Source of the DNA: a virus
Length of the DNA: 64,000 nt
Direction: 5' to 3' (one strand)
Virus record (IMG/VR): IMGVR_UViG_3300043395_000996
Span: 115,991-179,990 of that record
A model generated the notes under the pieces. The model was not told where the DNA came from, did not search any database, and saw nothing but the letters and a program-made list of their open reading frames with translations. Positions 3,149-22,414 of this stretch are shown piece by piece; position 1 is the stretch's first letter; each line of letters starts with the position of its first letter. Both the position numbers and the translations under genes were made by a program.

Positions 3149-4762
3149 TTAAAGAGTTTCTAAACCATCAACGATAATCTTACCGTAGAACTCTGGTCTT
3201 ACGATTTTCTTAGCGTATCTAGTCATCACACCTCTTCTTGGAGTGAAGTTGATTGGGTCATAAACTAAAGGAGTCATAATCAACGGAACATATGGAGCGT
3301 AAACAGCACCTGTTTCGAAGAAGTTAGAACCTTTGAAACCTAATAAGATTACGTTTTCAGTCATATAAGGATTCTTATAAACATCGTATCTATTAGAGAT
3401 TGAACCGATGTTAGTTACACCTGCTGCGAATTGCATTGCATCCTTACCAGGATTTGCAGAGAAACCATTCATTGATTCTAAAATAGTTGCTACGTTTGGA
3501 GATACAACGATGAAGTTTGCACCACCTCTCATAGTTAATTGGTGAATCTTGTTAGATATCTTTTGTAATTTGATACCTAAAGTTTGATACCAAGTGTTCT
3601 TTGTGTAAGCACCTGCTGCTACTGCAGTTGAATCAGCTGCGAAACCAGCACCTGTCCAATCGTATCCAACTCTTGCAGACCAGTATTCAGTAGAGAATGC
3701 GTTTTGCTGTAACATCTCTAAAATTTCTAAATCAATCTCTAAAGAGATGTATTCAGATAACATTTGAGTTAATTCAGCTTCTGCATCTACAGAGTGGTAT
3801 GCGTTTAAGTCTTGCGCTAATTCAGGAGTCCAAATTGCTTTCAACTTACGAGTCTTAGCCACGATAGGCTCAGATTTCAATTCTAATTCAACTTCTGGGA
3901 TAGGTAAGTCAGCACCTCTATCTTCGAAATCACCACGAGAAATATCAGTTGGTTGTTTGTGGTATGCTAAAGTAGCACCTACAGTACCAAAAATTGTGTT
4001 AGCTGCTGCTACTTTCGCAACGAAAGTTACGTTTGTACCTTCAACAGATGTAAATTCAGGATATAAAGTGAAACCTGAACCAGATTGTGCTAAATCAAAT
4101 GCTCTAGCACCATTGAAATCAGCATCATCAGGTAATGCTACAGTCAAAGTCTTAACTTTGTCAGCTGCAAATGCTGCAGAGAACGCTGAATCAACCAAGT
4201 TGTAGTTAATATCTGATAAAGATGCAGATGCAACAGTTGCGTTTTTAGCTACTGCTGAATCGTTGATTGTGTATCCGAAACGTCCTGCTCCGTATAATCC
4301 ACCTTCAGCTGCTTGAGTAGAACCCAATTTGTTACCAGCTGGAGATAAAGAATCTTTACCGAAAGTACCGCCGTTACCGAACATTGATGAATTTTGAGCT
4401 GGTCTACCTGTATCAGTGTCAGTACCATACTTGAAATCCATATAGAAAATAAGACCTGAAGGTAAGTTCATTGGTTGAACTGAAACGAATTCTTTCGCTG
4501 CAATTGAACCGAAGATTCTTCTTACCAATGGTAAAGCTACACCAGCCCACTCTTCAGAACCTGCTGAAGTACCTGTTCTTGTAGCCTCATCTAATAATTG
4601 CTTAGCTTGGTTTTCTAACATTACTGCCATACCATGCTTGTTTGTTTCAGACTTAACGCCTTCTAACAAACCTGTTTTTTCCCACTTTGCTTTCAAACCT
4701 CTAGTTTGCTCAAGCATTAATGACTGTGGGTTTTTTCCTGTCATAATTGATTTTAAATTCAT
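3149..4762 (-). CDS. gp23: Major capsid protein, T4 gp23 family
   Basis: LPLVRR, VSVQPMNLPSGLIF, VAKTRKLKAIWTPELAQDL, DAEAEL and FTPRRGVMTRYA are gp23-family motifs. Confidence 0.95.
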   Translation of the reverse strand: MNLKSIMTGKNPQSLMLEQTRGLKAKWEKTGLLEGVKSETNKHGMAVMLENQAKQLLDEATRTGTSAGSEEWAGVALPLVRRIFGSIAAKEFVSVQPMNLPSGLIFYMDFKYGTDTDTGRPAQNSSMFGNGGTFGKDSLSPAGNKLGSTQAAEGGLYGAGRFGYTINDSAVAKNATVASASLSDINYNLVDSAFSAAFAADKVKTLTVALPDDADFNGARAFDLAQSGSGFTLYPEFTSVEGTNVTFVAKVAAANTIFGTVGATLAYHKQPTDISRGDFEDRGADLPIPEVELELKSEPIVAKTRKLKAIWTPELAQDLNAYHSVDAEAELTQMLSEYISLEIDLEILEMLQQNAFSTEYWSARVGYDWTGAGFAADSTAVAAGAYTKNTWYQTLGIKLQKISNKIHQLTMRGGANFIVVSPNVATILESMNGFSANPGKDAMQFAAGVTNIGSISNRYDVYKNPYMTENVILLGFKGSNFFETGAVYAPYVPLIMTPLVYDPINFTPRRGVMTRYAKKIVRPEFYGKIIVDGLETL

Positions 4763-4793: not shown

Positions 4794-6032
4794 TTACTTA
4801 ATGATACCTGCTAATTTTCTAAATCTTTCAGAGAAATCTGCTGATTCTGCAATTACTTGCTTAGCTGCTTTTGGTGCAGTTGATTTAACTGCTTTAGAAG
4901 CGATTCCTTCAGAGATAGCTTTTTTAGCTGGTTTGTTATTTGAAGTATATTTGAAGTTCTCTGCTAATGTAGAGAATACCAATTTAACCTCTCTAACTGA
5001 TTTAGTTCTATCCAAAGTTTCAATCACTTTAACTTTTTGTTCGTTAGTCATGTTGTGTGCTCTGAATAATTTGTTTGCGAATAACAACTTAGCGTTCAAT
5101 AAGTTCACTTCGTTGATAGTCTTTTGTAATGATTTGATAGTTTTGTAAGCTTCTTCTAATTCAGCTTCTTTTTCTGATTCTTCAGCTTCGTCTACTTTCT
5201 CACCATCTTTCATATCAGCTTCCATTTCTCTTAAAATTTCTTCCAAGTCAACTTCATCTGATTCTTCTTCTTCGTTAGTTACAACAACTTTAGGTGTTTC
5301 ACCTTTATCAGTTCCAGCTTCAGAACCATCTGCTAAGTCTTCAGCGATTGCTGGTTGCTCTTCTGCAGGCATTTCTTCTTCTGAACCTTCTTCATCACCT
5401 AATTGTGCTTCTAACTCTCTGATGATAGCTTCTAAATCCATGTCATCTTCAGTTGATTCTTCTTCATCACCTGTTGGCATGTAATCTTCGCCTTCACCTT
5501 CTGATGCGAATGGGTCAGCTTCTGCTCCCATATCATCACCACCTTCTGCTGCATCTGCTGCGAAAGGATTTTCTTCTTCTGAACCTTCACCTTCTAATTC
5601 TGCCAATCTCGCTCTTAATTCTGCGATTTCTGCATCTTTAGAATCTGCTTCAGGTTCTGCTTCCATACCGAACTCATCTTCTTCGTTGATATCTGCTACT
5701 TTAGTGTAGTCAGTACCAGCTTGTTCTGGCTTACCACTATCTTTAGTTACACCTACTGATAAATCAGTATCCGCATCTAATGTTGGTGTTGCACCAGGAG
5801 TTTCGGCATATCCAGCTTCTACTTTAGAACCGATTCCTGTTGAATCCAATTCTTCATCAACTTGCTCCTCATCACCTTCCATTTCAGCTTCAGCTCTCAA
5901 CTTTTGAGTCAACATAGACTGAAGTCTTGGTGTAAAGGCTTCTTCAAGAGCAAGCTTTGCGTTAGCCAATGCAGTTTCTTTAACCGCTTTAGCATCTGCG
6001 ATTGCTTCTTTTAACAATTTTGAATTTGCCAT
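4794..6032 (-). CDS. Prohead core scaffolding protein (gp22-like)
   Basis: Very acidic, low-complexity protein directly upstream of the MCP, with helical termini (LLKEAIADAKAVKETALANAK; NEVNLLNAKLLFANKLF). Confidence 0.75.
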   Translation of the reverse strand: MANSKLLKEAIADAKAVKETALANAKLALEEAFTPRLQSMLTQKLRAEAEMEGDEEQVDEELDSTGIGSKVEAGYAETPGATPTLDADTDLSVGVTKDSGKPEQAGTDYTKVADINEEDEFGMEAEPEADSKDAEIAELRARLAELEGEGSEEENPFAADAAEGGDDMGAEADPFASEGEGEDYMPTGDEEESTEDDMDLEAIIRELEAQLGDEEGSEEEMPAEEQPAIAEDLADGSEAGTDKGETPKVVVTNEEEESDEVDLEEILREMEADMKDGEKVDEAEESEKEAELEEAYKTIKSLQKTINEVNLLNAKLLFANKLFRAHNMTNEQKVKVIETLDRTKSVREVKLVFSTLAENFKYTSNNKPAKKAISEGIASKAVKSTAPKAAKQVIAESADFSERFRKLAGIIK

Positions 6033-6798: not shown

Positions 6799-7236
6799 TT
6801 ATTTTAATTTTTCGCAAGTTTTACATTCTTGTAATCCTAATCTTTGTTTCATTACATCTTCAGTTACTTCAGCTATTTCAAAGTATCTATTTAATACATG
6901 CCCCATATCTTCATAAAGAGCTTCTAATCTTTGTTCTTGTGCTTTAGCTTCTAAAGATTCTTTTTGGAATTTTTCATGCAATGCTTTCAATTCTTTCATA
7001 TTACGTTTAATAGTTACTCTATCAAACCAATCACCACCTTCTCTTAAAGTATATTCTTGTGCAGCATCTGCAATACCACCCAATGTTTCGGCAATATTTC
7101 TGATATCGGATTTTCTATTCATTTGCTCTCTAAATTGACCAAATGTAGAAATTATTTCCAAAAAATGTTTCTTAATATCAGTAGGTAATTGCTGATATGC
7201 TTCCTCTTCTTTAAGTAAATCTTTTAAACGTATCAT
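6799..7236 (-). CDS. Hypothetical head-cluster protein
   Basis: Helical 145-aa ORF with N-terminal MIRLKDLLKEEE. Confidence 0.6.
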   Translation of the reverse strand: MIRLKDLLKEEEAYQQLPTDIKKHFLEIISTFGQFREQMNRKSDIRNIAETLGGIADAAQEYTLREGGDWFDRVTIKRNMKELKALHEKFQKESLEAKAQEQRLEALYEDMGHVLNRYFEIAEVTEDVMKQRLGLQECKTCEKLK

Positions 7237-7513: not shown

Positions 7514-8104
7514 TTAGTTTAATTCAATTATAATTTCTCTCATCAAGTCTTGTGCTTTGCAGAATTTTCCACATTCTTCTGCAACTTTAGCCCATTGTTT
7601 TGATTCGTTCATTGGTGCCATAAATGCTCCATGTGTAGATGGATTGGAAACAAAATCCCATCCAACTAATTCAAAATCTTCCTGAACCATTACAGTACCA
7701 TCGGAAAGTTCTTTTACTGAACCCAATCCTCTCGATGAAATCCCTAAACGAATGTTGTTTTTTAATAATTCTTTTAAGATGTTACCAGATGGAGTTGAAA
7801 GAATTTCCACTACACCAACTACGTCATCCCCATCCCATCCAATTTCTCTGATGTTATGTGATACGTTTTTTAAGTTGATTACGGGAGAATCTGGATGGTC
7901 TAATTCACCCAATGCTCTTCTTTCTTTAATAAGTTGCTCATACTTCTTACACTCTCTTTCCAAAATTTCTTTTGGATATCTTCTGTGGTTTTGATTTGGA
8001 GCACCAGCTCTTTGAAGAATACCCTTAACTAAATAAGTTCCGTTTTCTTCTTGCTGAAGTTTTGCTTCAAACAAATGAGTTTCTATTAATAATCCCTTAT
8101 TCAT
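7514..8104 (-). CDS. gp21: Prohead core protease, T4 gp21 family
   Basis: NQNHRRYP, ALGELDHP, NVSH, LGISSRGLGS and DFVSNPS are gp21/U9-family motifs. Confidence 0.92.
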   Translation of the reverse strand: MNKGLLIETHLFEAKLQQEENGTYLVKGILQRAGAPNQNHRRYPKEILERECKKYEQLIKERRALGELDHPDSPVINLKNVSHNIREIGWDGDDVVGVVEILSTPSGNILKELLKNNIRLGISSRGLGSVKELSDGTVMVQEDFELVGWDFVSNPSTHGAFMAPMNESKQWAKVAEECGKFCKAQDLMREIIIELN

Positions 8105-8514: not shown

Positions 8515-9036
8515 TTATTTTTTTTTTTGAGATATTCTATTGAATACCTCTTTTAATCTCAATTTATCCGATATATCACTTATTTCGTTATAATCGGTTT
8601 CTTTAATTCCTCTTTCAATTTCTCTTCTACTGGCATTTGGGTCTGCACATACAGCTACTCCAATTTTTTTTCTACCATAATCACCGGCCATATCATACAT
8701 AGCCATAATTGCTTTGAAATGCCAATCGTTTGTTCCTACTTCGTTTGTAGCTCTTAATGCTTTTAAATCAGAACCCTCAATCTCTCCATCCTTATCTACA
8801 TCTAATTTCTTTTGCCCTGCTGTTAATTCAGCTTCATTGTATCCTCTTAATTTACCTTCGGATTTTGCTTTGTAAGCAGTATCTACCGCATTAAAGAATT
8901 TTTTCTTATCATCATCTGACATAGAAGTTATAGATTTACCACTTTTATCCAACATATGTTTAAATAATTGCTGATAATCTTGTTCTTCCCTAACAGTTTG
9001 CTTTACAAACTCTTTTAAATTTTTGGATACTTTCAT
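8515..9036 (-). CDS. Hypothetical head-cluster protein with an EF-hand-like loop
   Basis: DVDKDGEIEGSD matches the canonical 12-residue EF-hand loop; the ORF ends in an 11-A run. Confidence 0.6.
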   Translation of the reverse strand: MKVSKNLKEFVKQTVREEQDYQQLFKHMLDKSGKSITSMSDDDKKKFFNAVDTAYKAKSEGKLRGYNEAELTAGQKKLDVDKDGEIEGSDLKALRATNEVGTNDWHFKAIMAMYDMAGDYGRKKIGVAVCADPNASRREIERGIKETDYNEISDISDKLRLKEVFNRISQKKK

Positions 9037-10711: not shown

Positions 10712-12439
10712 TTACTCTTTACCAAAATCTTCCATTAAAATAGTAGTTTTATTACCATTCATATCTTTGAAAATTTCTCTTGCTTCTCTTTGAGCTTTTT
10801 GTTTTAAAGTTTTAATTCCCAATGGGTCTCTTCCCAAAATGTGGTCATCTTTTTCATATCTAACCGGGTCTTTTGGTCTACCAACTTCTCCTTCTAATTC
10901 TAATTTCAATTTATTCAATTCTTCTTCAACATTTGTTGGTGCTTCAGTTCCCGTTTCTTTTGCCGGGTCAACACCTTGTGTTTCAATTGAAGTTAAACGG
11001 AATGCTTGTTTAGTATCTTCTATGATATCCAATGTTAATTCATCTTGCTCTTCAGGAGTCATATCCATAATTGCATCGTACATCCATTTTTTAGAGAACA
11101 TTTTTGTTTGTTGCATTTGCTGAATTAATGCTACTTTAGAAGTGTATAATTCAACTTTTTCTTGCTCATAAATTTTAGATGGAACAGTTAATTCTAATGA
11201 AAAATCTAAATCTTCTGCATTTTCTAAACCTTGTGAGTATAAGTGAACGATTGCAATCTTCGTTAATTCGGATACTAATACTTTTTGAATTCTTTCAATT
11301 GTTTTTGCAAAACGAACATCTTGTCCTGCCAAAGTGGCTTTACCACTTGTATCTTCCCCATATCCTAAAAATACTTTTGGAATTTTTAGAGCTGCCATCA
11401 TTTTATTTTTCAAATAATTGATGTCATTACTCATATCATATTCTAAACCTTTTAATGTATCGATATTAGTGCCATTATCGCTACCACGAACTGGCATATA
11501 ATAATCTTCGATTAAGTTTTGAATATTGTATTTTAAATTATATTCTCCCGTATTTGGGTCTATAAATGGAACTTTTTTAGAAGTATTGATAATCTTTTGC
11601 ATATAGTTATCAACTTCATTAGGTGGAATGTTACCAACATCCACTTTAAAAATTCTCTTTTCAGGAGCTCTCATAATACGATGGATTAACATCGCATCTT
11701 CCATTAAAGTTAATTGTTTCCAAACTCTTCTTGCGCCTTCTACCATAGATTTACCATATGGTAAGAAGTTTGAATCACCCATCAATCTAAAGTGAGCGAT
11801 TTCATAATTTTCATATTCTTGCTTTTGCCCCATCACATTACTTTGTGAGTATGCGCTGTTTGGATTTTGATATGGAGCATATACGAATTTAACTTTTTGT
11901 GGATTTAATGGGTCAAATCCTTCAACTCTCGATGTTTCATAAACTGAAAGTGGTTGGACATTTACAATACCCAATCCTTCTGCAATTTCTAAATGTAAAA
12001 AACAATCTCCGTATTTAACTAAATTTCTTGCCCAAGGCCAAAGTGTAAATTCAATGTTTAATACATCATAAAATAAATTCTTTAAAATTTCTTTAGTGTT
12101 TTCGTTTCCACAATTGATTTTAAGAATATCACCATACTCATTTTTAACAGTAGATTCATCAGCGTAAATATCCAAAGCAGATGTTATAATAGGGTCGTTA
12201 TCCATCCCATCATAATCTCTAAACAAATCAATACGAACTTGCTGATATGCCATCGTTGATTCAATCAAACCACCACTATATTGTGGGGTTCTCATACGTG
12301 TGAATCTATCAACCAAATTTGTTGTAATTTGTTGATATTCATCCGTATCTACTACTTTAATGCCTTTTGGTGTTTTACGAACAATAGTGTTCGTTGAAAA
12401 TAATTTTTGTAACCTACCAAAGAATGATTTATCTGCCAT
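10712..12439 (-). CDS. gp20: Portal protein, T4 gp20 family
   Basis: LMEDAMLIHRIMRAPEKRIFKVDVGNIP, EDYYMPVRG, IDTLKG and LKIPK are gp20 signatures. Confidence 0.95.
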   Translation of the reverse strand: MADKSFFGRLQKLFSTNTIVRKTPKGIKVVDTDEYQQITTNLVDRFTRMRTPQYSGGLIESTMAYQQVRIDLFRDYDGMDNDPIITSALDIYADESTVKNEYGDILKINCGNENTKEILKNLFYDVLNIEFTLWPWARNLVKYGDCFLHLEIAEGLGIVNVQPLSVYETSRVEGFDPLNPQKVKFVYAPYQNPNSAYSQSNVMGQKQEYENYEIAHFRLMGDSNFLPYGKSMVEGARRVWKQLTLMEDAMLIHRIMRAPEKRIFKVDVGNIPPNEVDNYMQKIINTSKKVPFIDPNTGEYNLKYNIQNLIEDYYMPVRGSDNGTNIDTLKGLEYDMSNDINYLKNKMMAALKIPKVFLGYGEDTSGKATLAGQDVRFAKTIERIQKVLVSELTKIAIVHLYSQGLENAEDLDFSLELTVPSKIYEQEKVELYTSKVALIQQMQQTKMFSKKWMYDAIMDMTPEEQDELTLDIIEDTKQAFRLTSIETQGVDPAKETGTEAPTNVEEELNKLKLELEGEVGRPKDPVRYEKDDHILGRDPLGIKTLKQKAQREAREIFKDMNGNKTTILMEDFGKE

Positions 12440-12495: not shown

Positions 12496-13263
12496 TTACC
12501 ACTTTCTACAACTCCAATATCTTGCTTTCCATCTTGGACCTGGAGTATCACAATTATGTCTTGCTCTGAATGATTTTCTTCTTTCTGGGTTAGATTTTTT
12601 AATTCTCATATTAGGGTCTCCAAAGTTTACCTTAACAACATTTCCTTTGTCATTCTTAACATATACTTTGAATTTTTTAACATCACCTTGCATTGGTTTT
12701 CCCAACTTAACACTTCTACCCTGATATTCAGCTTCGTACACACAATCGCAACTAGCTTCTGCTAAATATTGAGTGTATTCTCTCATAAACTGAATGAATT
12801 CTTTCATATCCTCTCCGTTCTCAACATCATATTCAATCGGTTCGTTTTCTTCAGCTTCTTTGATTGGAACACAATTGGGTACTTCTTTACCATCTTTCTT
12901 TTTTGTACCAACCATTTCGTATCCTTTCCAACAAGGATTATCCATTTCTTTTACAATATTTGATAATTTCATTTCTTTTTCATTTACATATGGAGAATTA
13001 ACTGGCTCATATCCTCTATTTACTTTGTCCTTTTTTGGATTGTATGGTTCTACTTTACCAGGATTTCTATCTTTTTCTTCATCATCAAAATCCGTTGTAT
13101 CCGTATCTGCAATATTTCCCATAAAATCGCCATACATTGAACCAGCATGGTGTGCATTAAAATCAGTTTCAGCTGGTGTATCATACTTACCTATCCCATC
13201 TAACGATTTTTGATTTGTTGTAGGAACTGCTTCCTTTAATGGTACTAAATCTACTAATTTCAT
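12496..13263 (-). CDS. Mosaic head-cluster protein with a C-terminal DUF6321-like domain
   Basis: CWKGYEMVGTKKKDGKEVPNCVP module plus a VNFGDP...SFRARHNC...ARYWSCRKW domain. Start moved to ATG 13263, 20 nt after the late motif. Confidence 0.65.
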   Translation of the reverse strand: MKLVDLVPLKEAVPTTNQKSLDGIGKYDTPAETDFNAHHAGSMYGDFMGNIADTDTTDFDDEEKDRNPGKVEPYNPKKDKVNRGYEPVNSPYVNEKEMKLSNIVKEMDNPCWKGYEMVGTKKKDGKEVPNCVPIKEAEENEPIEYDVENGEDMKEFIQFMREYTQYLAEASCDCVYEAEYQGRSVKLGKPMQGDVKKFKVYVKNDKGNVVKVNFGDPNMRIKKSNPERRKSFRARHNCDTPGPRWKARYWSCRKW

Positions 13264-13282
13264 AATTCTTATAGTTTCAACA

Positions 13283-13291
13283 TATAAATAT
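13283..13291 (-). promoter_or_regulatory. Putative late promoter motif ATATTTATA
   Basis: 20 nt upstream of ATG 13263. Confidence 0.55.
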
Positions 13292-13298
13292 ATAAAAA

Positions 13299-14906
13299 TT
13301 AACGAAGTAACCAAGTTAGGTTTTCTTTTTCACCTCTACCTATTTCCATTTCATATGGATTTTGTTGTTGCCAGTTAGAAGTATATACTCCTTCATTGTT
13401 TTGAATAGTTGTAGAATTTAACATACTTCTTGTCAAATCGATACCTTCTTGTCTTAATCTCAATGCGGTGTTTCTTACCCACAATCCAATACCCAATGCC
13501 ATTGTAAGGTCATCATTATATCCTTTCATAGCTTCTGCTCTACCACCATTCCAAATAAATGTAAATAATTCATCTATTAATCTATTAGAACGAATTAGAA
13601 TGTCTTTATCTCTAAAATATGTATCCAATGCTGATATAATAAGAGGACGAGTTTTGGTTGTAGTCGAAAATCCTGCAACCATGCTTTTTTCTTGTCTATA
13701 ATATTTGTTAGACATTTGTCTTTCAACATCCACATATTGTAAATCATTACTCATATAGAATAGATTAGGATATCCCCTATCAATTACTTGCTGAATACAT
13801 GCCCAACCTACGTTTGAGTTTTCAATTACCAATAATGCGTTATTATATTCGGTTGCCAATGATGTTAGAAAATTTCCAAAATCTTTTGTATCGATTTTAC
13901 CTCTATATTCTCCAACCTGCGATGAATCTTCAATATCAATAATTTGAGCAGTGGAATAATCACTTCCATCGCCCCTCGCCACGTCGGCGGATATCATATA
14001 TTGTCTATTGTAATTAGGATATTCCCATATCCATAAGTTATTATCAAATCCTCTCTTCTCTACCGGCTCCATAACGTATGTATCTTTATACCACGTTAAT
14101 AATGCCGGGTCGATTACAGTAGCACCAGAACCAACGAAGTCACAATCACATTCTTGTGCGGCTCCCTTAACTCCCAAAATACGAGTTTGTTCATCTCTCC
14201 ACGCTTGATTTCTTTCAGGGTGTACAGTCCAATGTAGATTGATACAATTGAATCCGTTTGTTCCACTTTCACCATCTACCCACATTTTATGAAACCAGTT
14301 ACCAATACCATTTGGTGTAGATAATACAATTGCCGAACCACCCGTTGATAAGGTAGATTGTGCTGATAACCAAATTTCATCGATATCTCTAATGAATGCC
14401 GCCTCATCCACAACCAATAGAGATAGGGCTTCAGAACGACCTGCATCAGGTGAACTTGCGATTGCTTTTACTTGCGAACCATTTTTTAATTTAAGTGATA
14501 GTTTGTTATCTTCAGCTGCTGCCGTTGAACCATCTCTTAACCAAACGGGAAGTAAATCGTGCATAACCCTTACTTTCTCTACAAGGTTTTTTGCAACAGT
14601 TACTTTAGTTGCAATAACCAAAGCATTGAAGTCTTGGTTAAATAACATCTTCCAAAGTATAAAGCCCGCCGATAGGGTTGATAAACCTAACTGACGGGAT
14701 TTAAGAATAATGTTAAATCTATTATCTTTAAAATCATCTAAACAATTCTCCTGAAATGGATATAAGTGAAAAGGTATTTTTCCTCTCGTTGGATGCTGAA
14801 TCACACAATACTTTTTCATAAAGTATATTGGGTCTAAAGCACACTTCTTATACTCATCAGCGATGATTTCTTTTAAATTCTTTTTTGGTTGCCCTTGTAT
14901 AGACAT
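13299..14906 (-). CDS. gp17: Terminase large subunit, T4 gp17 family
   Basis: Walker A-like LKSRQLGLST, Walker B LLVVDEAAF, STPNG, nuclease ADVARGDGSDYS and NDDLTMAL. Start moved to ATG 14906 (TAATG coupling). Confidence 0.95.
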   Translation of the reverse strand: MSIQGQPKKNLKEIIADEYKKCALDPIYFMKKYCVIQHPTRGKIPFHLYPFQENCLDDFKDNRFNIILKSRQLGLSTLSAGFILWKMLFNQDFNALVIATKVTVAKNLVEKVRVMHDLLPVWLRDGSTAAAEDNKLSLKLKNGSQVKAIASSPDAGRSEALSLLVVDEAAFIRDIDEIWLSAQSTLSTGGSAIVLSTPNGIGNWFHKMWVDGESGTNGFNCINLHWTVHPERNQAWRDEQTRILGVKGAAQECDCDFVGSGATVIDPALLTWYKDTYVMEPVEKRGFDNNLWIWEYPNYNRQYMISADVARGDGSDYSTAQIIDIEDSSQVGEYRGKIDTKDFGNFLTSLATEYNNALLVIENSNVGWACIQQVIDRGYPNLFYMSNDLQYVDVERQMSNKYYRQEKSMVAGFSTTTKTRPLIISALDTYFRDKDILIRSNRLIDELFTFIWNGGRAEAMKGYNDDLTMALGIGLWVRNTALRLRQEGIDLTRSMLNSTTIQNNEGVYTSNWQQQNPYEMEIGRGEKENLTWLLR

Positions 14907-15556
14907 TACTTTTTTAATTTGATTTTCCAATATACTCCACCTCTAATATATGGTGTTAGATACCCATTTGTACCATCGGTTGTTTTATTATTAACACCAA
15001 TACCCAAATTGTATATTTTATTAGAGTTAGAATTTACCATTACACCAATGCCAATAAAATTTACATAATCGGCTTGATTAAATCCACCTTCAAATCCAGC
15101 ATAAACTTTACGTTTAAATGGTTCTGGTATTATGAGTGTATCTATTTTAGGTGTAATTTTGGTTGTATATTTTCTACCTATTATTTTATTTTTACTTATT
15201 GTATCAATGATTGTAATTGAACCCTGTTGTTTATCAAATTTATAGGTGTTTGTAAATACATTCACATTATTCAAATATTGATTTATGATAGAATTTGTAT
15301 CTACTTTTATTTGAATCGTATCATGTACTGCGTATGGTATTGGTTTTTCGACTTCTACCGGTACTTCTACATCATAAGGCACTTCCACTTCAATTGTATC
15401 GTGAATTGGATGTAAAGATTGACCATCAACTTTAACTATTTTTTCAATAGTTTTGTTTCTATTAGGCATTACACCAAATGGGTCAAAAGATACCAATGAT
15501 AATATAATCACTAATACAACAATGATAATATGTCTTATGTCAAATAGTTTCTTCAT
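14906..15556 (-). CDS. Membrane-anchored envelope protein, spanin-like candidate
   Basis: N-terminal TM segment; C-terminal amphipathic beta-strands ending in GVYWKIKLKK. Confidence 0.5.
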   Translation of the reverse strand: MKKLFDIRHIIIVVLVIILSLVSFDPFGVMPNRNKTIEKIVKVDGQSLHPIHDTIEVEVPYDVEVPVEVEKPIPYAVHDTIQIKVDTNSIINQYLNNVNVFTNTYKFDKQQGSITIIDTISKNKIIGRKYTTKITPKIDTLIIPEPFKRKVYAGFEGGFNQADYVNFIGIGVMVNSNSNKIYNLGIGVNNKTTDGTNGYLTPYIRGGVYWKIKLKK

Positions 15557-15966
15557 TACTTAATCAAAAATAATACGGTCATTACTAAAGCAATACCAGA
15601 ACCAGCTTTATAAACAGCGGTTTTAAATTTCTGAACTTTTAATTCTTTCAATAAACTATTAGATTTTTCTCTCTCCAACGCAAATTGTTGGTCTTTCTTA
15701 TCTATAATAGTATTTAGGTTGTTGATTTTTTCATCTTTCAAAGTATCCTTTTGTTTATATAGGTTAATTTGTAGATTTTTTTCATCCAACGCTTTATACA
15801 CTTCCTTTAATTCAGCTTTTGCACCATCACCGCTAAGAATATCCTTAATGACTAACTTGGCCGTTGGTACTTTTAGAGGCACTATCGAGTCCGTTTTCGT
15901 AACGGTCTGCGAAAAACTTGATAAGGTCGTGAATAGTATAATCACTAACAGCATTAACTTTTTCAT
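15556..15966 (-). CDS. Secreted coiled-coil protein with a C-terminal TM (spanin-like candidate)
   Basis: Signal peptide (MKKLMLLVIILFTTLSSFSQ), coiled coil and hydrophobic C-terminus; overlaps the upstream gene by 122 nt. Confidence 0.5.
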   Translation of the reverse strand: MKKLMLLVIILFTTLSSFSQTVTKTDSIVPLKVPTAKLVIKDILSGDGAKAELKEVYKALDEKNLQINLYKQKDTLKDEKINNLNTIIDKKDQQFALEREKSNSLLKELKVQKFKTAVYKAGSGIALVMTVLFLIK

Positions 15967-16225
15967 TTGTATGTGTTTTTATTTCGGTTATATTTTTGTT
16001 GATTGTTGTAATTCTAGTTTCTACTACGTTTATTTCTTCATCTACTTTTGCAATATGTCCATCAATTACTTTGTTTGCAGTTTCAACCGAATCTATTTCA
16101 TGTTGTAAAGAATCAATTTTACGATTATATGCTTCAACATCAGTTTTGATGCCATTGTTGGTAAATAAATTATAACCAACTAAAACAATAAGAATTACTA
16201 ATATAATATTCTTTATATATTTCAT
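15845..16225 (-). CDS. Inner-membrane coiled-coil protein (Rz/i-spanin-like candidate)
   Basis: N-terminal TM (IILVILIVLVGY) followed by a long heptad coiled coil. Confidence 0.5.
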   Translation of the reverse strand: MKYIKNIILVILIVLVGYNLFTNNGIKTDVEAYNRKIDSLQHEIDSVETANKVIDGHIAKVDEEINVVETRITTINKNITEIKTHTNEKVNAVSDYTIHDLIKFFADRYENGLDSASKSTNGQVSH

Positions 16226-16231
16226 AATTTT

Positions 16232-16900
16232 TTAATTTTTTATAAGCTCTGGATGATTTAATTCTCGTAACTTATCTTCTAATGCTGCTTTCCTTTCCAA
16301 TAGAGCTTCAATTGCTTCGGTAGCACCATTTATATCTCTCTGAATATCTTCTCTTACTTTATCTATATCGATATCATGTGACCACGTTTCAGTTGAACCA
16401 TCTTCATTTATGATTTCAAATGTGGTCTTTACATTAACCAATGCTTCTTCAAATTTCATTTTCATATCCTTAACATAACTCAACTGATTACAACTTATTT
16501 TGTAATCTTCGTAGTAAGGAAATGTTCCATCATCTTTTAATGTAAATTCTAACTTTTGTAAACAACTTAAACACAATCCACTTTTTCTAATTGTTTTTTT
16601 ATCTAAATGGTCGTATTTTATTGTTTTACAATCATCCGATGAACACGTATTCAACTTATCTAAATAAGCTCTTACCTCATCGAATTTAGATACATTTATT
16701 TTATACCCTTCTTTTTGCTCCCATTCTACACCTTCGGCATCAGTCCATCGTTCACCTACTTCTCTTTTCTTTTCAGCCTCTCCTTCAAATCCAAATACTT
16801 TTTGATTATTATCTTCTCTGCCAAAAACAGTATCAATAATCAATTTACGGGATTTATGCATCCCTTTACTTTTCTCATCCCAACTTTTTCTCTTTGTCAT
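16232..16900 (-). CDS. Hypothetical protein with a putative Zn-binding Cys motif
   Basis: CSSDDC...CLSC motif; coiled-coil C-terminus. Confidence 0.55.
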   Translation of the reverse strand: MTKRKSWDEKSKGMHKSRKLIIDTVFGREDNNQKVFGFEGEAEKKREVGERWTDAEGVEWEQKEGYKINVSKFDEVRAYLDKLNTCSSDDCKTIKYDHLDKKTIRKSGLCLSCLQKLEFTLKDDGTFPYYEDYKISCNQLSYVKDMKMKFEEALVNVKTTFEIINEDGSTETWSHDIDIDKVREDIQRDINGATEAIEALLERKAALEDKLRELNHPELIKN

Positions 16901-16948: not shown

Positions 16949-19900
16949 TTATCTTCCAAACTTAAAAATTCCTAAAATTTGATTTAACGGAGCGAATGTG
17001 CCCGTTAATTTATAAGTATTTCCTTTATAAAAGAATACCAATCCTTCGTTTGGAACTAACTTATCAAATCCACCAATAGCATTTAATCTAGCTAATTCTT
17101 TTTCTAATCTTTTAATTTGAGATTCGCTACCACCACTTCTAATATCAGATATTGATGATTCTAATGATTTTCTAATAGATTGTAATGCTGAATCAGGTTG
17201 AGCAGTTAATACTGAACCCATAAATGATAATACTTCTGCACCTACTCCCAAAAAGATATCTTCAAATTTACGAAGATTTCCTTTCATAATTTTATCTTTT
17301 GCATCTTTATCTACTCCTTCTGCCCATTTTCTAGCATCCTCATCTGCAATTGATTTAATCGTGAATGATTTATTGTCAAACGCCCATCTTCTTGCCAATC
17401 CTTCTTTTTCCAATTGTGCAAGATTCTTTTTAGATTTGTTTACAAAATTCATCCACCAAGCATAGTGATAATCAGCTACACCATCTTTATCACCTAAATT
17501 AAATTCAGATTGTAATTTAGATAGCATACTATTAAATTTGCCTTTTTGAGAACTTAATTTCTCATCTTTTGGTAATTTAGTAATTGGTGGTCCCTGTATA
17601 GTATATTTTGATTGAACATCCGCATTTACCTTTTTAATCATCGATGCCAATTTACTTTCTGCTCCTTTTACTCCACCAATTGCATTTCCTTTTTCATCAT
17701 ATTCTACAACGTTGTGGAACACTAATAGATTTTGTCCATAAGGAATTACATTTGCATTTTCAGGGTAAATTACTTCTAAATTACAAAATGCCGAACCATC
17801 TTTGAATATACTTTGTCTTTCCTTTTCACCCAATCCACTTATTGCAGAATATAAATCTTTCATTGCGAAATTATATGCATCAGCTAAAGCACCTCTACCA
17901 TTGAATTTATCTGCTAATGCTGCTGCATCTAATGCGTTTTCTCCACTATTTGCCAAATGTCCTTTGTTACGAGCCGCAATCAATCTACCATTTTTCCAAC
18001 TTATTGCTAATGCCTGTCCATCGGTTTTTTCTCTAACTACTCCTAAATTACCATCCAAAGCGTTGTTGATAATTTTTTTCAAATCACCAAATGTAAGATT
18101 CATTGAAATATCAAACGGATGATTCATATGCCCATACGCCCCACCTTCCATTATCAATTCTTTTGATTGATTTACGGATTCATTTATAATTGAACCACCA
18201 TTGGTAGTTATGAAGTTTGCTATATCTGCTTCATTTTTTGCAACTACTACTCTCGGATACTTTTGTTTAAGTTTTTGTATGGTTTTTTCAGTATCCTCTT
18301 TATTTTCCATATCAAAATCCCAGCTTCCAACTTTAACATTTGTTTTCAAAAGCCAAGGTACAACTAAAATACTTTCAATTTTAATTTGATTTAAAACTAC
18401 TTCGTTCCAATCCGAATCGTAGTATAAACCATTTGAATTTAGGTATTTATCCTGAAACTCTTTTTTCTTACTCAACATATATCTATCGGCTGCATCAATG
18501 TATTTCTTAATAAATTCAGCTTTTTCTTTATTTGTAGCTGGATTATCATACATATTTTTCTTCCAATCTTCTTTGTATGGTTTTAATTCGGGTGCAAAAT
18601 TAAATACTACATCTTGCTCTCTTCCCAATCCCGAAATTATAGTACCAGGATTTACCCATCTCATTCCTTTTTTATCAGGCTCTGTCCATAAGTCCATTAT
18701 ACTTTGTGCTAATACAGTGCCTGATAATGCTACAATGATACCACCCTTTGTATGCATTCCTTTACCTTGAACAAGCTTTCCCCATTTAGTAGTTTTTGTA
18801 AAAGTAGAAATAGATTTTTGTTTTCCTTGCAATGCATCTACTTGTGGTAAATGTTCAATATCAGTAGCATGTAATGAAGTTGTTCGTATTGGTTCAACTA
18901 TTTTTTTAATAATATTAAGTGAAAGGGGCAATTTACCCAACATACATTTATCATATGCGCTATCTTCCCATTTAACTTCATTTAAGGATTCTTTAAAAGC
19001 AGATGGAGTTTTTATCTTTCTCCAACCTCCTGTAAATCTGAATATTCTAGCAGGTATTGGAAGCGTTGAACCTATTGGAAACTTATGAAAATATTTACTA
19101 TCAATGTGAATTATCTTTGTTATAAATTGATTTGTTTTATTATCAGCACCTATTAATTCTACTTCTATTGGTACTACAACTCCGTTTATTTTAAGATTTC
19201 CAGCATATAATTGACCCTTTGTAAATGCTTCGTTTGTAATTGTTTTAGAAGATGTTTGAAAATCACCTTTTCTCATTATAGTTTTGGCAATAACTTTATT
19301 AGCCATTTTTACAAATGGAATATTGATATCACTTCTACTATCTTTTACTACAATTTGATTGTATTTATCTAATAGATTTAAAAATTCTTTTTTGTGTTTT
19401 GATGCCAATCTTTTAAAAAAGCCAGTTAATTCTGGTTCTGAAATATCTTTACCATTTCTAGCATCGTTTACTCTATCGAAAAAATGTTTACTAAATTCTA
19501 TATCAGCGGGTGATAATTCTCTATCGGCATATCTCTCTACACTATCCAAATCAGCTTTAGCCATCTCTTCGGTTGTTCTGAATGTGGTTGCTTGCTTACC
19601 ATTGATAGTTGGCATTCCGTGGTCATCTTTACCAATATCTTTAACTTGTACTTTTTTGTTTTTGAATTTACCCATCAAAACAACATCACCTTTATCAACA
19701 TCTACATTAACATCTTCGTAAATATGTGAGTTTAATTTACCAAAATCTCTTAAAAGAATTCCGGCTGCTGCATTTGCTTCGTTTTCTACATCTGAACCCG
19801 TAGCACCATCTTCTACTCCACCAATATATCCACTTTGTCTTTGTTTAAGATGAACTAATTCGTGTGCCAATGTTCTTAAAATATCGGGTAAACTTCTATT

Positions 19901-22249
19901 CGTAACATATACATAAATGTTATCAGTATGTGGGTCATATCCACCAAATGATTTGTATAATGTTGCAAATTCATTATCTTTAACTAATTGAATGTTAAAT
20001 GGCATTTTTTCCAACTCCAATCTATGGGTTGCAAATTTAATGAATTCACCTATGGTTTGAGCTTTACTTTTTTTTTGTGCCAAATCTTCTCTCAACAAAT
20101 CCATTGCTGCATTTTTAGCATCCATTTCCGGTTTGTTCTTTTTATATGATTCGATAGATGCCAACATTTGTTCATCTGACATTTTGAATGTTGCCATTCT
20201 CTCACCTATTTTCTTTATTAGGTTCATCATCATATTATGTGGATTAGGTTGGGTTGAATCTACACCTTCCGCAAGTCCGCCCGTTACAATACTCAATGCA
20301 GCACCACCTACGCCGGCTTGAGCCGCATTAGCTCCTACTGCTTCAAATGCAACGTGCTTAACCATATCCTTACCCAAATGTGCGCCAAATCCCCATGCAC
20401 CGTGAGTAAATGCGCTTGTTGCACCATGTAGTGCCGCCTGTCCTATCGTACTTGCAGTAGCTCCGGCGGTTGTAGCCGCTCCGTATGCCGCTGTTCCAGC
20501 TCCAGCTGTCATCATACTAGCACACATAATAGCGGCATCTTTTGCAGTACCAATTAAACCTTTCTTTTGCTCTTGATGTTCATACCAAGACTTTTTAGCT
20601 AATGCCAATTCGTGTTTAGATAAATCTTCTCTGAATACGGGTTCTTTTGTAGTTTTTGGTCTACCTCTCCAATCGGTTGCTTGTACGGGATTACCATTTT
20701 CATCGTGAACATCATGCCCATGCTTATCTTTTTTATAAACAGGCACTTCTTTCATTTTAGAACCCCATCCTTCAGCTGCACTTCCACTTTGTGTATAATC
20801 AGACCAATGTGCTTTTTTGCCCGTTTTAGGGTCTTTTATTGTTCCTAATTTACCCGATGTTGCAAAAGAATATATTCCTTTGCCAAATTCTTTATATTGG
20901 TCAACTTTATGTGCAATCACATGCCCAACTGCTTTACCAACCGCATGTAATTTCTTACCTGTCCAATCGTTTAATTTTGAATACCAACCCTTTCTCATTT
21001 CTGATTCGGGATTATTTGCATCATCAGCCGCTTTTCTATCCTCTTCAGATAAACCAGCTTTTGCTTTATGTAATTTTTCTTTTACTTCGGATGCTGCTCC
21101 ACCTTTTTCTTTTTTCTCTGCCGAAGATTTTAATTCTGCTCCACTTAATTTTTGCTCAGGCGGTGGCGCTTGTTGACCCGGTTGCTCTCCACCATTTGGA
21201 GTTCCATCTATTTTACCCTGTGCGGTTTGTCCTTTTTTAACAGGTTGACCTGGCTGTGCTGGCTTAGCTGATTGAGTTGCCGCTTTTCCCTTTGGTTCAT
21301 TAACCGGTGCATCTTTTGGCCCTACTAATTTAGCGGCTTGAATATGTGCTTCGTGGTCTTTTGGTAATCTCAATGCACCTCTTACAGTAATTTTCTTTTT
21401 CTTACCATCTTTGGAAGTATAACTGATTTCCTTATCCATTATAGGATTTGGTTCTTCTTCTAAAAAATATTCTTCTATGAAATTATCTGCTTCAAATACC
21501 AATTTTGCTATTTGTTCAGCGATAGGGTCATAATAATCATCTTTATTAGAGTATTCTATTTCGTGTCTTGTAGGATGTGGTTCTGGTCTCATTTCTGATG
21601 ATGGGTTTGTATTATTACTTTCCTCAACCGAACCCGTTGGTGCACCATTGATATATCCATTTGGTAAATTTAACCCAACTCCGATTCCACCAGGAAATCC
21701 TTCATTTAACTTTTTTGTAATCATTTTAAAAATATCTTTATCAAATTTTGGATATGCTTTTGTGAAGAATTTTTTTGCAGTTTCTTCATCGCCACCCAAT
21801 CCCTTACGGACATCCGTTCCACTAATAGGATTTGATTCAGGTGGTACTATATAAGTATAACCAATCTCATCGTAACCATATCCAGCTTTACCATTATATG
21901 GTTTAAAGTATTTACCTTGCAATCTATTTGCATCTTTCTCACCTACTGCTGCAATATATTGAGTAGTTTTACCATCAAATTTAGAAAGTACTTCTTTTGG
22001 AGAGTATGGGTTTGCTACTTGTACAATTTTGCTTGGCGGAATACCAAACATTTTACCCATTATGATAACCTTTTCTTTGAAATTAAATGGAGATTTATCG
22101 TTATCCGTTTTATTAGACGTAGCAATATAAACATTATCCTTACCGAATTTAGATACTAACTTCTCATAAGCGGCATAATGCCCTTTATGAAAGGGTTGAA
22201 AACGGCCCGAATATATTACAACGGTCTTTGTTACTTTTGGTTTATCCAC
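16949..22249 (-). CDS. 1766-aa multidomain protein: HIGH nucleotidyltransferase + zincin metallopeptidase + putative RNase + putative ADP-ribosyltransferase + ligase-type nucleotidyltransferase
   Basis: Motifs SGRFQPFHKGH; LAHELVH..ENEAN; FSKHFFDRVNDAR; LHAT/SISTF/WNEVV; EKTDG...EGLVF...YKL. GTG start 23 nt after the late motif. Confidence 0.75.
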   Translation of the reverse strand: MDKPKVTKTVVIYSGRFQPFHKGHYAAYEKLVSKFGKDNVYIATSNKTDNDKSPFNFKEKVIIMGKMFGIPPSKIVQVANPYSPKEVLSKFDGKTTQYIAAVGEKDANRLQGKYFKPYNGKAGYGYDEIGYTYIVPPESNPISGTDVRKGLGGDEETAKKFFTKAYPKFDKDIFKMITKKLNEGFPGGIGVGLNLPNGYINGAPTGSVEESNNTNPSSEMRPEPHPTRHEIEYSNKDDYYDPIAEQIAKLVFEADNFIEEYFLEEEPNPIMDKEISYTSKDGKKKKITVRGALRLPKDHEAHIQAAKLVGPKDAPVNEPKGKAATQSAKPAQPGQPVKKGQTAQGKIDGTPNGGEQPGQQAPPPEQKLSGAELKSSAEKKEKGGAASEVKEKLHKAKAGLSEEDRKAADDANNPESEMRKGWYSKLNDWTGKKLHAVGKAVGHVIAHKVDQYKEFGKGIYSFATSGKLGTIKDPKTGKKAHWSDYTQSGSAAEGWGSKMKEVPVYKKDKHGHDVHDENGNPVQATDWRGRPKTTKEPVFREDLSKHELALAKKSWYEHQEQKKGLIGTAKDAAIMCASMMTAGAGTAAYGAATTAGATASTIGQAALHGATSAFTHGAWGFGAHLGKDMVKHVAFEAVGANAAQAGVGGAALSIVTGGLAEGVDSTQPNPHNMMMNLIKKIGERMATFKMSDEQMLASIESYKKNKPEMDAKNAAMDLLREDLAQKKSKAQTIGEFIKFATHRLELEKMPFNIQLVKDNEFATLYKSFGGYDPHTDNIYVYVTNRSLPDILRTLAHELVHLKQRQSGYIGGVEDGATGSDVENEANAAAGILLRDFGKLNSHIYEDVNVDVDKGDVVLMGKFKNKKVQVKDIGKDDHGMPTINGKQATTFRTTEEMAKADLDSVERYADRELSPADIEFSKHFFDRVNDARNGKDISEPELTGFFKRLASKHKKEFLNLLDKYNQIVVKDSRSDINIPFVKMANKVIAKTIMRKGDFQTSSKTITNEAFTKGQLYAGNLKINGVVVPIEVELIGADNKTNQFITKIIHIDSKYFHKFPIGSTLPIPARIFRFTGGWRKIKTPSAFKESLNEVKWEDSAYDKCMLGKLPLSLNIIKKIVEPIRTTSLHATDIEHLPQVDALQGKQKSISTFTKTTKWGKLVQGKGMHTKGGIIVALSGTVLAQSIMDLWTEPDKKGMRWVNPGTIISGLGREQDVVFNFAPELKPYKEDWKKNMYDNPATNKEKAEFIKKYIDAADRYMLSKKKEFQDKYLNSNGLYYDSDWNEVVLNQIKIESILVVPWLLKTNVKVGSWDFDMENKEDTEKTIQKLKQKYPRVVVAKNEADIANFITTNGGSIINESVNQSKELIMEGGAYGHMNHPFDISMNLTFGDLKKIINNALDGNLGVVREKTDGQALAISWKNGRLIAARNKGHLANSGENALDAAALADKFNGRGALADAYNFAMKDLYSAISGLGEKERQSIFKDGSAFCNLEVIYPENANVIPYGQNLLVFHNVVEYDEKGNAIGGVKGAESKLASMIKKVNADVQSKYTIQGPPITKLPKDEKLSSQKGKFNSMLSKLQSEFNLGDKDGVADYHYAWWMNFVNKSKKNLAQLEKEGLARRWAFDNKSFTIKSIADEDARKWAEGVDKDAKDKIMKGNLRKFEDIFLGVGAEVLSFMGSVLTAQPDSALQSIRKSLESSISDIRSGGSESQIKRLEKELARLNAIGGFDKLVPNEGLVFFYKGNTYKLTGTFAPLNQILGIFKFGR

Positions 22250-22271: not shown

Positions 22272-22280
22272 TATAAATAT
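22272..22280 (-). promoter_or_regulatory. Putative late promoter motif ATATTTATA
   Basis: 23 nt upstream of the 1766-aa gene. Confidence 0.55.
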
Positions 22281-22294
22281 TCTAAAACTTAACT

Positions 22295-22414
22295 TTAGAA
22301 ATTTTTATATACAAATGGGTCTCTTTTTTTAAGTTCTTCTAATTTTTTCTTAATTCTTTTTTTCATTTTATACTTTTCGTATAATTCTTTTAAATATTTA
22401 AATGGATTTATCAT
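22295..22414 (-). CDS. 39-aa basic protein (MINPFKYLKELYEKYKMKKRIKKKLEELKKRDPFVYKNF)
   Basis: Not in the ORF track. ATGA coupling to the upstream stop; fills the intergenic gap exactly. Confidence 0.6.
   Translation of the reverse strand: MINPFKYLKELYEKYKMKKRIKKKLEELKKRDPFVYKNF

Follow-up and report, generated by a model that had tools for sequence, protein, structure and literature searches.

The window analysed here, 64,000 nucleotides (nt) long, is the last 64 kb of the IMG/VR virus record IMGVR_UViG_3300043395_000996 (179,990 bp, ~95% complete, GC content ~30%) of an uncultured T4-like lake phage, and this work deals with one gene in it: a single uninterrupted open reading frame (ORF) of 1766 codons at 16949-22249 on the minus strand, whose product we call the polyprotein. 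The ORF starts with GTG, with AGGA 6 nt 5' of the start, and lies on the head-gene strand, with the gene for the large terminase (TerL) ~2 kb further downstream. An initial annotation of this DNA had described its product as a candidate virion-packaged anti-host/anti-defence polyprotein of five enzyme-like domains that are separated by prohead-protease-type sites and cut apart during maturation. The gene is organized as follows (aa, amino acids; pLDDT, predicted local distance difference test score).

22272..22280, minus strand: candidate late-promoter motif ATATTTATA, 23-31 nt 5' of the GTG start (about -30)
21701..22249, minus strand: HIGH (HxGH) nucleotidyltransferase, NMNAT-like, aa 1-183; ends KKLNE183
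21296..21700, minus strand: aa 184-318, conserved peptide FPGGIGVGLNLPNGYINGAP and then small acidic/helical blocks with IAE245, VFE253, IEE260 and LEE265; ends PVNE318
21038..21295, minus strand: low-complexity linker of Pro, Gln, Lys, Ala and Glu, aa 319-404, from the translation
20570..21037, minus strand: conserved block rich in Lys, Gly, His and Trp, aa 405-560; high-scoring segment pairs end at aa 465-487 and start at aa 557-614
20267..20569, minus strand: Gly/Ala/Thr-rich hydrophobic segment with a conserved His, aa 561-661; ends GLAE661
20087..20266, minus strand: spacer, aa 662-721; ends DLLRE721; recurrent breakpoint at aa 708-733
19715..20086, minus strand: minimal zincin metallopeptidase, aa 722-845, with H796-E797-x-x-H800 and E822/E824 downstream; ends HIYE845
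19565..19714, minus strand: small four-stranded beta module ("SH3-like"), aa 846-895; ends TTEE895 (VNE, LSE or INE in relatives)
19229..19564, minus strand: HFFDR..PRN..INIPF module ("RNase-like"), aa 896-1007; ends ITNE1007
18977..19228, minus strand: Tudor/SH3-like beta barrel, aa 1008-1091; ends ESLNE1091
18179..18976, minus strand: well-folded alpha/beta domain ("ART-like", for ADP-ribosyltransferase), aa 1092-1357; ends IINE1357
18146..18178, minus strand: 11-residue spacer SVNQSKELIME, aa 1358-1368, with Glu sites on both sides and pLDDT <50 in both models
16952..18145, minus strand: constant C-terminal domain, aa 1369-1766, starting GGAYGHMNHPFD, with a ligase-like order of motifs

The polyprotein belongs to a large modular family, of which our literature searches found no description. 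Among the candidates that it scored, a word-indexed search recovered 1,497 homologues (971-3091 aa), a scan of viral contigs added 80 further loci, and a full HMMER scan with aa 184-1383 returned 3,933 proteins, many of them short and carrying one or two modules. BLAST mapping of members with total lengths from 792 to more than 2,100 aa showed that the N-terminal nucleotidyltransferase and the C-terminal domain of ~400 aa are kept in all of them, and that the middle modules may change their order (SH3-like, beta and finally zincin, for instance), be duplicated, be missing or give way to unrelated sequence; the SH3-like part moves as an independent module among relatives. The breakpoints recur at aa 181-185, 465-487, 557-614, 708-733, 834-849, 891-904, 998-1015, 1087-1103 and 1337-1365 of the query. 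The module borders drawn by the initial annotation coincide with these breakpoints, and relatives have their modules rearranged at the junctions it had named; its border at 19227 matches a breakpoint but is 2 nt out of codon register, as aa 1007 ends at 19229. The alternative that the middle of ~1180 aa is an intein was rejected, as its borders lack splice motifs of the Cys/Ser-His-Asn kind and it is made up of independent modules.

Some non-enzymatic parts are also conserved. The stretch aa 184-318 is maintained across homologues within block 1-478, and it begins with the peptide FPGGxGVGLxLPxGYINGAP (aa 184-203, 21641-21700, minus strand), which is kept family-wide and recurs elsewhere in relatives, always after a Glu site; it might be a docking or recognition element. 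The relatives L047 and L064 have an equivalent of the hydrophobic segment, rich in Gly, Ala and His. Among other contents of the family, DUF5661 (PF18905, up to 1.3e-13) is carried by all of L038:5130-9194, L047:5025-9194, L064:5190-9185 and L083:404-3301, the protein P0397 fuses the "ART-like" module to a Zeta-toxin domain (PF06414), and with P0131 as the query the viral-contig scan located the module mostly inside polyproteins. A DGHHR motif in L038 and L047 was read by eye as ParB-like. Some members are labelled in their sources as proteins of metagenome-assembled genomes of Bacteroidota or Flavobacteriaceae. According to the capsid protein, the nearest cultured relatives of the window genome are Microcystis phage Mel-JY01 and Flavobacterium phage immuto (53-56% identity). 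The Mel-JY01 homologue has 639 aa with the leader MGKLINILLSE, consists of the two ends only and lies ~2.6 kb upstream of its own terminase gene; the scan found no close relatives of its C-terminal domain.

The junctions between modules share a motif. The initial annotation had noted that nearly every boundary ends in a hydrophobic/Thr-x-Glu triplet, and the eleven peptides that it quoted (KKLNE183, LVFE253, FLEE265, PVNE318, LLRE721, HIYE845, TTEE895, ITNE1007, SLNE1091, IINE1357 and LIME1368) are all present in the ORF. The last residue before the predicted cut (P1) is Glu in nearly all aligned homologues at aa 183 (41/42), 661 (111/120), 721 (151/170), 845 (193/204), 1007 (71/72), 1091 (92/96) and 1368 (118/121), with P3 mostly hydrophobic, even when the next module differs, as in HIYE/SKQM, HIYE/MAQS and HIYE/DVNV (the slash marks the predicted cut). 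We then projected the module starts onto 460 non-identical proteins, counting a start when [LIVMF]xE ended no more than 3 residues from it: the motif was found at 89% of zincin, 71% of SH3-like, 74% of HFFDR, 85% of beta, 93% of "ART-like" and 98% of C-terminal starts, against 10.9% of random positions, although these proteins are related and the percentages do not represent independent events. At the start of the C-terminal domain, [IL]xE immediately precedes GGAY in 118 of 121 homologues. Before GGAYGH we found 47 distinct DNA contexts; in all 46 that could be read P1 was Glu (GAA or GAG) and P3 was I, L or V, whereas P2 varied (T, M, N, S, L or K). This combination of a free P2 with constant P1 and P3 indicates selection on the peptide itself rather than on a linker in the DNA.

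The T4 prohead protease gp21 cuts C-terminal to Glu after L/I-X-E (PMC9026906), and by comparison of sequences the junction pattern is this reported specificity. Sites 183, 721, 845, 1091, 1357 and 1368 fit it strictly, and sites 895 and 1007 have Thr at P3, with V, L or I in relatives. A Peptidase_S77 gene of the gp21 type is encoded in the window genome, and also in the five large relatives tested (5/5). The view of the junctions as gp21-type sites is thus supported by the protease gene, by the conservation of the motif and by the leaders described below, which end in the same motif.

The position of the junctions in a structural model is in line with this. An AlphaFold2 model of aa 724-1368, obtained with an alignment of 71 rows, had a mean pLDDT of 76.5 and values <50 at aa 846-848, 889-894, 966-1007, 1082-1093 and 1358-1368. 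The junction sites 845, 895, 1091, 1357 and 1368 fall in coil, with a mean pLDDT of 41-59 for their 10-residue blocks, and site 1007 is the end of a stretch with pLDDT <50, compared to block means of 71-93 for the non-junction sites 735, 938 and 1119. The initial annotation would have been contradicted by Glu triplets lying inside folded domains; in the model, the junction sites are predicted to lie in low-confidence coil between folded blocks.

The evidence that moved us most toward head cargo is that the same motif ends short N-terminal leaders resembling capsid-targeting sequences (CTS). The "ART-like" domain is also encoded by stand-alone genes with CTS-like leaders, and the four proteins of this kind start MIRLGKLLNE/VKWE, MKLTELLKE/LKW, MKLTTILNE/LHG and MKLKTILNE/VSK; these leaders have 9-10 residues and their hydrophobic-x-Glu end falls exactly at the start of the polyprotein module (ESLNE/VKWE). 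In a subfamily with 28-31% identity the module reads MIKLKDLLKE/EPKF when alone, SNINE/VEPKF when internal, and MINE/AEPKF where it opens a protein with an additional Zeta-toxin domain. Other stand-alone modules have the leaders MIKLKTLVKE/MAFADL and MKKLKDLISE/NINIP, and a 252-aa HFFDR protein of immuto follows the same pattern (MKKSQLRQIIKE/). Most relatives of the polyprotein start MNLNE/VDKP, MKLE/VDKP or MNELSNFLVE/SILLE/. In the window, four minus-strand genes of the head cluster have CTS-like leaders that end in hydrophobic-x-Glu at residue 8-10: MANSKLLKE (4794-6032), MIRLKDLLKE (6799-7236), MNKGLLIE (7514-8104) and MKVSKNLKE (8515-9036), and the products of 6799-7236 and 8515-9036 are candidate internal or core proteins. 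The major capsid protein reads LLDE59/A, which we take to correspond to the cleavage position of gp23. For comparison, the N-terminus of T4 IPIII is MKTYQEFIAE, and T4 gp21 itself has LIE-9 (PMC9026906). In T4 IPIII, a change of the P1 Glu to Asp stops processing and leaves targeting intact.

Regarding the identity of the modules, the label of HIGH nucleotidyltransferase given to aa 1-183 was confirmed by a Pfam CTP_transf_like match above cut-off (26.8 bits vs 21) and by phrog_395 (5.8e-12). The domain has the motifs FHKGH (aa 20-24, HxGH) and ISGTDVR (aa 142-148), its best PDB relatives are the archaeal NMNAT 1f9a (E 0.005) and NadM 2qjt, and GRFQPFHKGH and ISGTDVR are NMNAT motifs. The NMNAT equivalog models were matched only far below their cut-offs (NCBIfam TIGR01527, 23.2 bits vs 181; PRK01153, 25.7 vs 127). 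With the NAD-rebuilding pathway NARP2 (Nampt + NMNAT; bioRxiv 10.1101/2024.02.11.579819) this domain shares the NMNAT motifs and the nearness to archaeal NMNAT/NadM; however, no gene of the NAPRTase/Nampt family was found in the 95%-complete window genome, which weakens a role of this kind.

The HExxH zincin label was also upheld, by a zincin fold match with the HExxH intact, and this module is present in nearly all long family members; a stand-alone relative gave only weak Pfam matches to DUF6782, Tox-MPTase3, WLM and M78, and no Pfam model of MPTase-PolyVal matches the polyprotein or the stand-alone modules. In the "SH3-like" part the model has four short strands (model residues 133-159, pLDDT 64-80), but fold searches gave no assignment. 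The HFFDR module (aa 896-1007) was the most widespread in a representative search and matches phrog_23027 (5.7e-11). Its invariants are D, H, R, N, E, K, Y and NIPF, and aa 966-1007 were modelled at pLDDT <50. For the "RNase-like" label there are weak hints in REGB_T4 matches below the gathering score of 27 bits (best 17.1 bits, E 0.0057; E 0.0021 in 4 of 14 members; also in L035), but the comparison of the HFFDR profile with T4 RegB by hhalign gave no match, and neither a PDB profile search nor Pfam on the stand-alone module gave anything, so that we regard its putative identity as an RNase as a lead.

The "ART-like" domain is modelled at pLDDT 81-96 over most of its length, and alignment A4 shows LHxTD, KxISxF, GxxTxGG, LSG, RW and WNE as invariant. 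Its label was left without support from any search: Pfam, PDB, PADLOC and the ESM Atlas gave no match, and a multidomain fold search barely covered it. On motif grounds, LHxTD, ISxF and WNE could fit the H/R - S/Y - E catalytic pattern of ARTs. In the C-terminal domain the motifs follow in the order EK1408xDG, E1492, FH1512, E1735-G and K1742/K1747, with a helical insert of ~190 aa separating the last two groups, and the E, K, D and G of motif I and EG..K..TG are invariant (alignments A1 and A3). In the homologue P0239 a HINT/intein (PT-HINT 2.6e-07, Intein_splicing 9.3e-06) lies directly after the Lys of the motif REKTDG (REK-CIAGDT...). Inteins typically sit in active sites, and its position is consistent with the motif Lys being an active-site residue. 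The "ligase-like" label thus retains the invariant EKxDG and the ordered motifs, but no significant sequence or fold match: the profile of the domain had no Pfam or PDB match, hhalign against T4 Rnl2 aligned motif I only (E 0.086), RNA ligases recur among the Foldseek matches of the C-terminal model (pLDDT 65) at an insignificant E of 0.3-1.1, and the matches of a VIA-wide search with this low-confidence model were filled by a helical hairpin. Taken together, searches of the whole polyprotein in Pfam, NCBIfam and PHROGs returned the nucleotidyltransferase and two unnamed PHROGs only; PDB sequence searches returned only NMNATs, whether the query was the whole protein or a profile of the C-terminal, "ART-like" or "RNase-like" module; Foldseek against PDB gave nothing at E <= 0.001 for either model; ESM Atlas searches returned unnamed viral clusters with no named match; and PADLOC found nothing. 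That an end resembling a HIGH adenylyltransferase is constantly paired with one resembling a Lys-nucleotidyl transferase suggests a nucleotide or RNA-end chemistry.

The genomic context is that of a putative late gene among head and packaging genes. The initial annotation placed the gene near the head operon, in agreement with the window gene search, which found TerL, portal, major capsid protein and S77 protease among the downstream genes of the same strand. All 60 loci that extend far enough downstream have TerL there, on the strand of the polyprotein gene, at 0.7-1.4 kb among the 50 nearest listed. As for the late motif under which the gene had been placed, ATATTTATA precedes 8 of the 17 virion-region genes that have an intergenic gap (the polyprotein gene and seven others, including a head-tail adaptor), 14-36 nt upstream, but it differs from the T4 motif TATAAATA, to which it is similar and not identical. 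Its plus-strand form, TATAAATAT, has 14 copies in the window vs 7.1 +/- 2.5 expected (plus-strand positions include 3062, 10686, 22272, 46898, 53800, 55780 and 60497), 12 of the 14 copies being in gene-strand orientation. Based on this distribution, ATATTTATA is a candidate late promoter. In the 161-nt gap 5' of the polyprotein gene we also observed an ORF of 23 codons, MKKRIKKKLEELKKRDPFVYKNF, at 22295-22366 on the minus strand, just before ATATTTATA.

All these data lead us to propose, with a probability of roughly 0.6, that the polyprotein is a modular head cargo that is cut at its junctions by the gp21-type protease and whose pieces are ejected with the DNA. What stood of the packaged effector cassette of the initial annotation is a head-targeted polyprotein with protease sites at its junctions, on comparative evidence; its loading, cutting, retention and ejection, like any anti-host or anti-defence role, are what we infer. 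As comparative genomics the proposal appears well supported. The polyprotein would be expressed late, together with the packaging and head genes, and would enter the prohead core, where the gp21-type serine protease would cut each module junction after its hydrophobic-x-Glu. This is predicted to yield the NMNAT-like nucleotidyltransferase (21 kDa), the zincin (14 kDa), two small beta modules, the HFFDR module (13 kDa), the alpha/beta domain (31 kDa) and the KxDG domain (45 kDa), and to set free the low-complexity and hydrophobic N-proximal pieces as well. If T4 Alt and the internal proteins are a guide, the folded pieces would remain in the head, exit with the DNA and act early in the next cell.

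Several observations weigh against this proposal. The window copy starts V-DKPKV, with neither a leader nor an in-frame upstream start, so that a leader cannot account for its entry into the prohead; its nearest kin likewise start directly at V/M-DKP. The propeptide of T4 Alt is itself just 7 residues long (PMC9026906). Leaders were found in 18 of 57 short representative matches vs 8 of 53 window genes, and some of these short matches are probably fragments or different architectures. The number of [LI]xE sites in the whole polyprotein is not above chance (16 vs 14.5 +/- 3.4 in shuffles) and no overall enrichment was found of [LIVM]xE, [LIVMFT]xE or the phiKZ-type [SAG]xE; only the placement of the sites, not their number, carries the signal. 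Moreover, some conserved hydrophobic-x-Glu sites (735, 938, 1119 and 1475) fall inside folded domains, and given this and the chance-level count the motif alone is not diagnostic. The "five enzyme-like domains" proved to be an overstatement, as the nucleotidyltransferase and the zincin were confirmed and the other three are based on motifs or weak hints. Finally, no full-length member was found in a cultured phage, and no virion proteomics or cleavage data were found for any family member.

Other explanations have to be considered with the same evidence. The protein could be cut in the prohead and be a core or scaffold accessory, with its fragments mostly expelled before packaging or with enzymes that act in the capsid or in the producing cell. 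T4 core proteins (gp22, gp67 and gp68) are in fact cut into several fragments that exit the head (PMC9026906), the N-proximal third of the polyprotein is acidic or low-complexity like a scaffold, many predicted fragments are small (5-14 kDa) and the gene is located among packaging genes. We consider this unlikely, however, since folded enzyme-like modules (the nucleotidyltransferase, the zincin, the 31-kDa alpha/beta and the KxDG domains) have no obvious scaffolding role, and the fast turnover of cassettes is reminiscent of cargo driven by conflict, like the non-conserved IP genes of T4 (PMC9026906), with one relative coupling the "ART-like" module to a Zeta-toxin domain. It is rather improbable that the protein is an uncut, cytoplasmic, multidomain late enzyme whose Glu junctions are linkers, domain caps or footprints of cassette recombination. 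The chance-level site count and the leaderless window copy would be expected of such an enzyme, and conserved short linkers could ease cassette exchange (ES[LI]NE recurs), but the fixed P1 and P3 and free P2 over 47 DNA contexts point to selection on the peptide, the same motif ends stand-alone leaders, where no upstream module needs linking, and it fits the specificity of a protease family encoded in the genome.

The embedded zincin, with its intact HExxH and its presence in nearly all long members, could also be the enzyme that cuts the junctions, before or after transfer, in a self-processing polyvalent protein, and Iyer et al. have proposed autoproteolysis by MPTase domains (PMC5512222). 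This seems very doubtful to us, because members without any HExxH (L038, L047, L064, L075, L082 and L083) keep leaders and junction motifs, Mel-JY01, which has no zincin module, still reads IAE/GG before the C-terminal domain, the stand-alone leader-bearing genes listed for the other modules carry no HExxH, and the motif equals the S77 specificity, with no Pfam match to MPTase-PolyVal.

The proposed head cargo shares several features with T4 Alt and IPI-IPIII: a gp21-family protease in the genome, the same type of cleavage motif, a late gene beside head genes, CTS-resembling leaders of 9-12 residues in relatives and stand-alone module genes, and a content that varies quickly between related phages (PMC9026906). 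In contrast, T4 cargo proteins have separate genes with one leader each and lack the two constant framing domains, whereas in this family as many as a dozen modules share one ORF, each junction having its site, and the polyprotein is known from sequence alone, with a leaderless copy in the window. In the giant phages phiKZ, 201phi2-1 and SPN3US, according to PMC9026906, PMC10052503 and PMC7411985, diverged gp21-like proteases (gp175, gp245) cut many head-internal ejected proteins after the Glu of a short motif, but these appear there as separate head and ejection proteins and not as chained enzyme cassettes. The polyvalent proteins (PMC5512222) are also large, mosaic, multidomain phage proteins with at least two unrelated domains, a zincin and a portal/terminase neighbourhood, predicted to be packaged and delivered, and some of our relatives have the Zeta-toxin domain and the by-eye ParB-like DGHHR. 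Unlike our proposal, their processing has been ascribed to embedded MPTase or HINT domains (PMC5512222). That paper contains no text on a role of the prohead protease (its one match to "prohead" is a reference title) or on Glu-delimited junctions, a term search of it did not find the constant frame of HIGH nucleotidyltransferase and KxDG domain among the domains that it discusses, and the Pfam models of polyvalent-protein domains do not match the polyprotein. Neither the T4-cargo nor the polyvalent-protein account has many protease-delimited cassettes fused between constant domains at both ends.

A tentative extension of the head-cargo proposal is that the head protease decodes a single-gene "operon", which would bring exchangeable enzymes in stoichiometric amounts to the capsid and then to the next host, with the cassettes moving freely and the ends forming a pre-loaded repair/modification pair. 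Cassettes could then pass from stand-alone leader-bearing genes to the polyprotein and back, since a leader end and a junction are one and the same protease site, and the end pair would repair or modify nucleotides or RNA ends ahead of all phage gene expression. If the head-cargo proposal is true, the paradigm of T4 Alt and the internal proteins widens from one leader-bearing gene per cargo protein to a polyprotein, decoded by the protease, in which many enzymes are packed in fixed ratios, polyvalent proteins would have a processing route other than the self-cleavage proposed in 2017, and a sequence rule (hydrophobic-x-Glu at leader or junction and a nearby S77 protease) would find injected proteins in uncultured lake T4-like phages. 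Furthermore, at least three abundant families would be likely first-minute effectors (the HFFDR module, the alpha/beta domain of 31 kDa and the KxDG domain), and the junction rule could be copied, as a natural design, to load T4-type capsids with several foreign proteins.

Downstream of the polyprotein gene, the packaging and head region contains the following genes.

16232-16900, minus strand: conserved gene for a 222-aa protein that has a coiled coil at its C-terminus and four Cys (CSSDDC...CLSC), between the polyprotein gene and TerL
14906-15556, 15556-15966 and 15845-16225, minus strand: three small genes whose products have hydrophobic N-termini, located between TerL and the 222-aa gene
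13299-14930, minus strand: large terminase (TerL)
12496-13314, minus strand: 272-aa gene, between terminase and portal
10712-12439, minus strand: portal
7514-8104, minus strand: gp21-type Peptidase_S77 prohead protease (PF03420, 102.8 bits; phrog_207, 6e-53), N-terminus MNKGLLIE8
4794-6032, minus strand: scaffold-like acidic protein, leader MANSKLLKE
3149-4762, minus strand: major capsid protein, LLDE59/A

The 222-aa neighbour is present at 80 of 80 related loci and has no PHROG match; its position suggests that it may be a small terminase subunit. The three small genes at 14906-16225 look like a local insertion, as the interval spans only ~1.35 kb in most relatives. By eye, the 272-aa gene has short cassettes in common with the polyprotein relatives L064, L083, L092 and P0251, namely DFDD..K..PG...GYEP and CWKGY...VPNCVP followed by I-K-E, and cargo cassettes may thus sit in neighbouring genes too.

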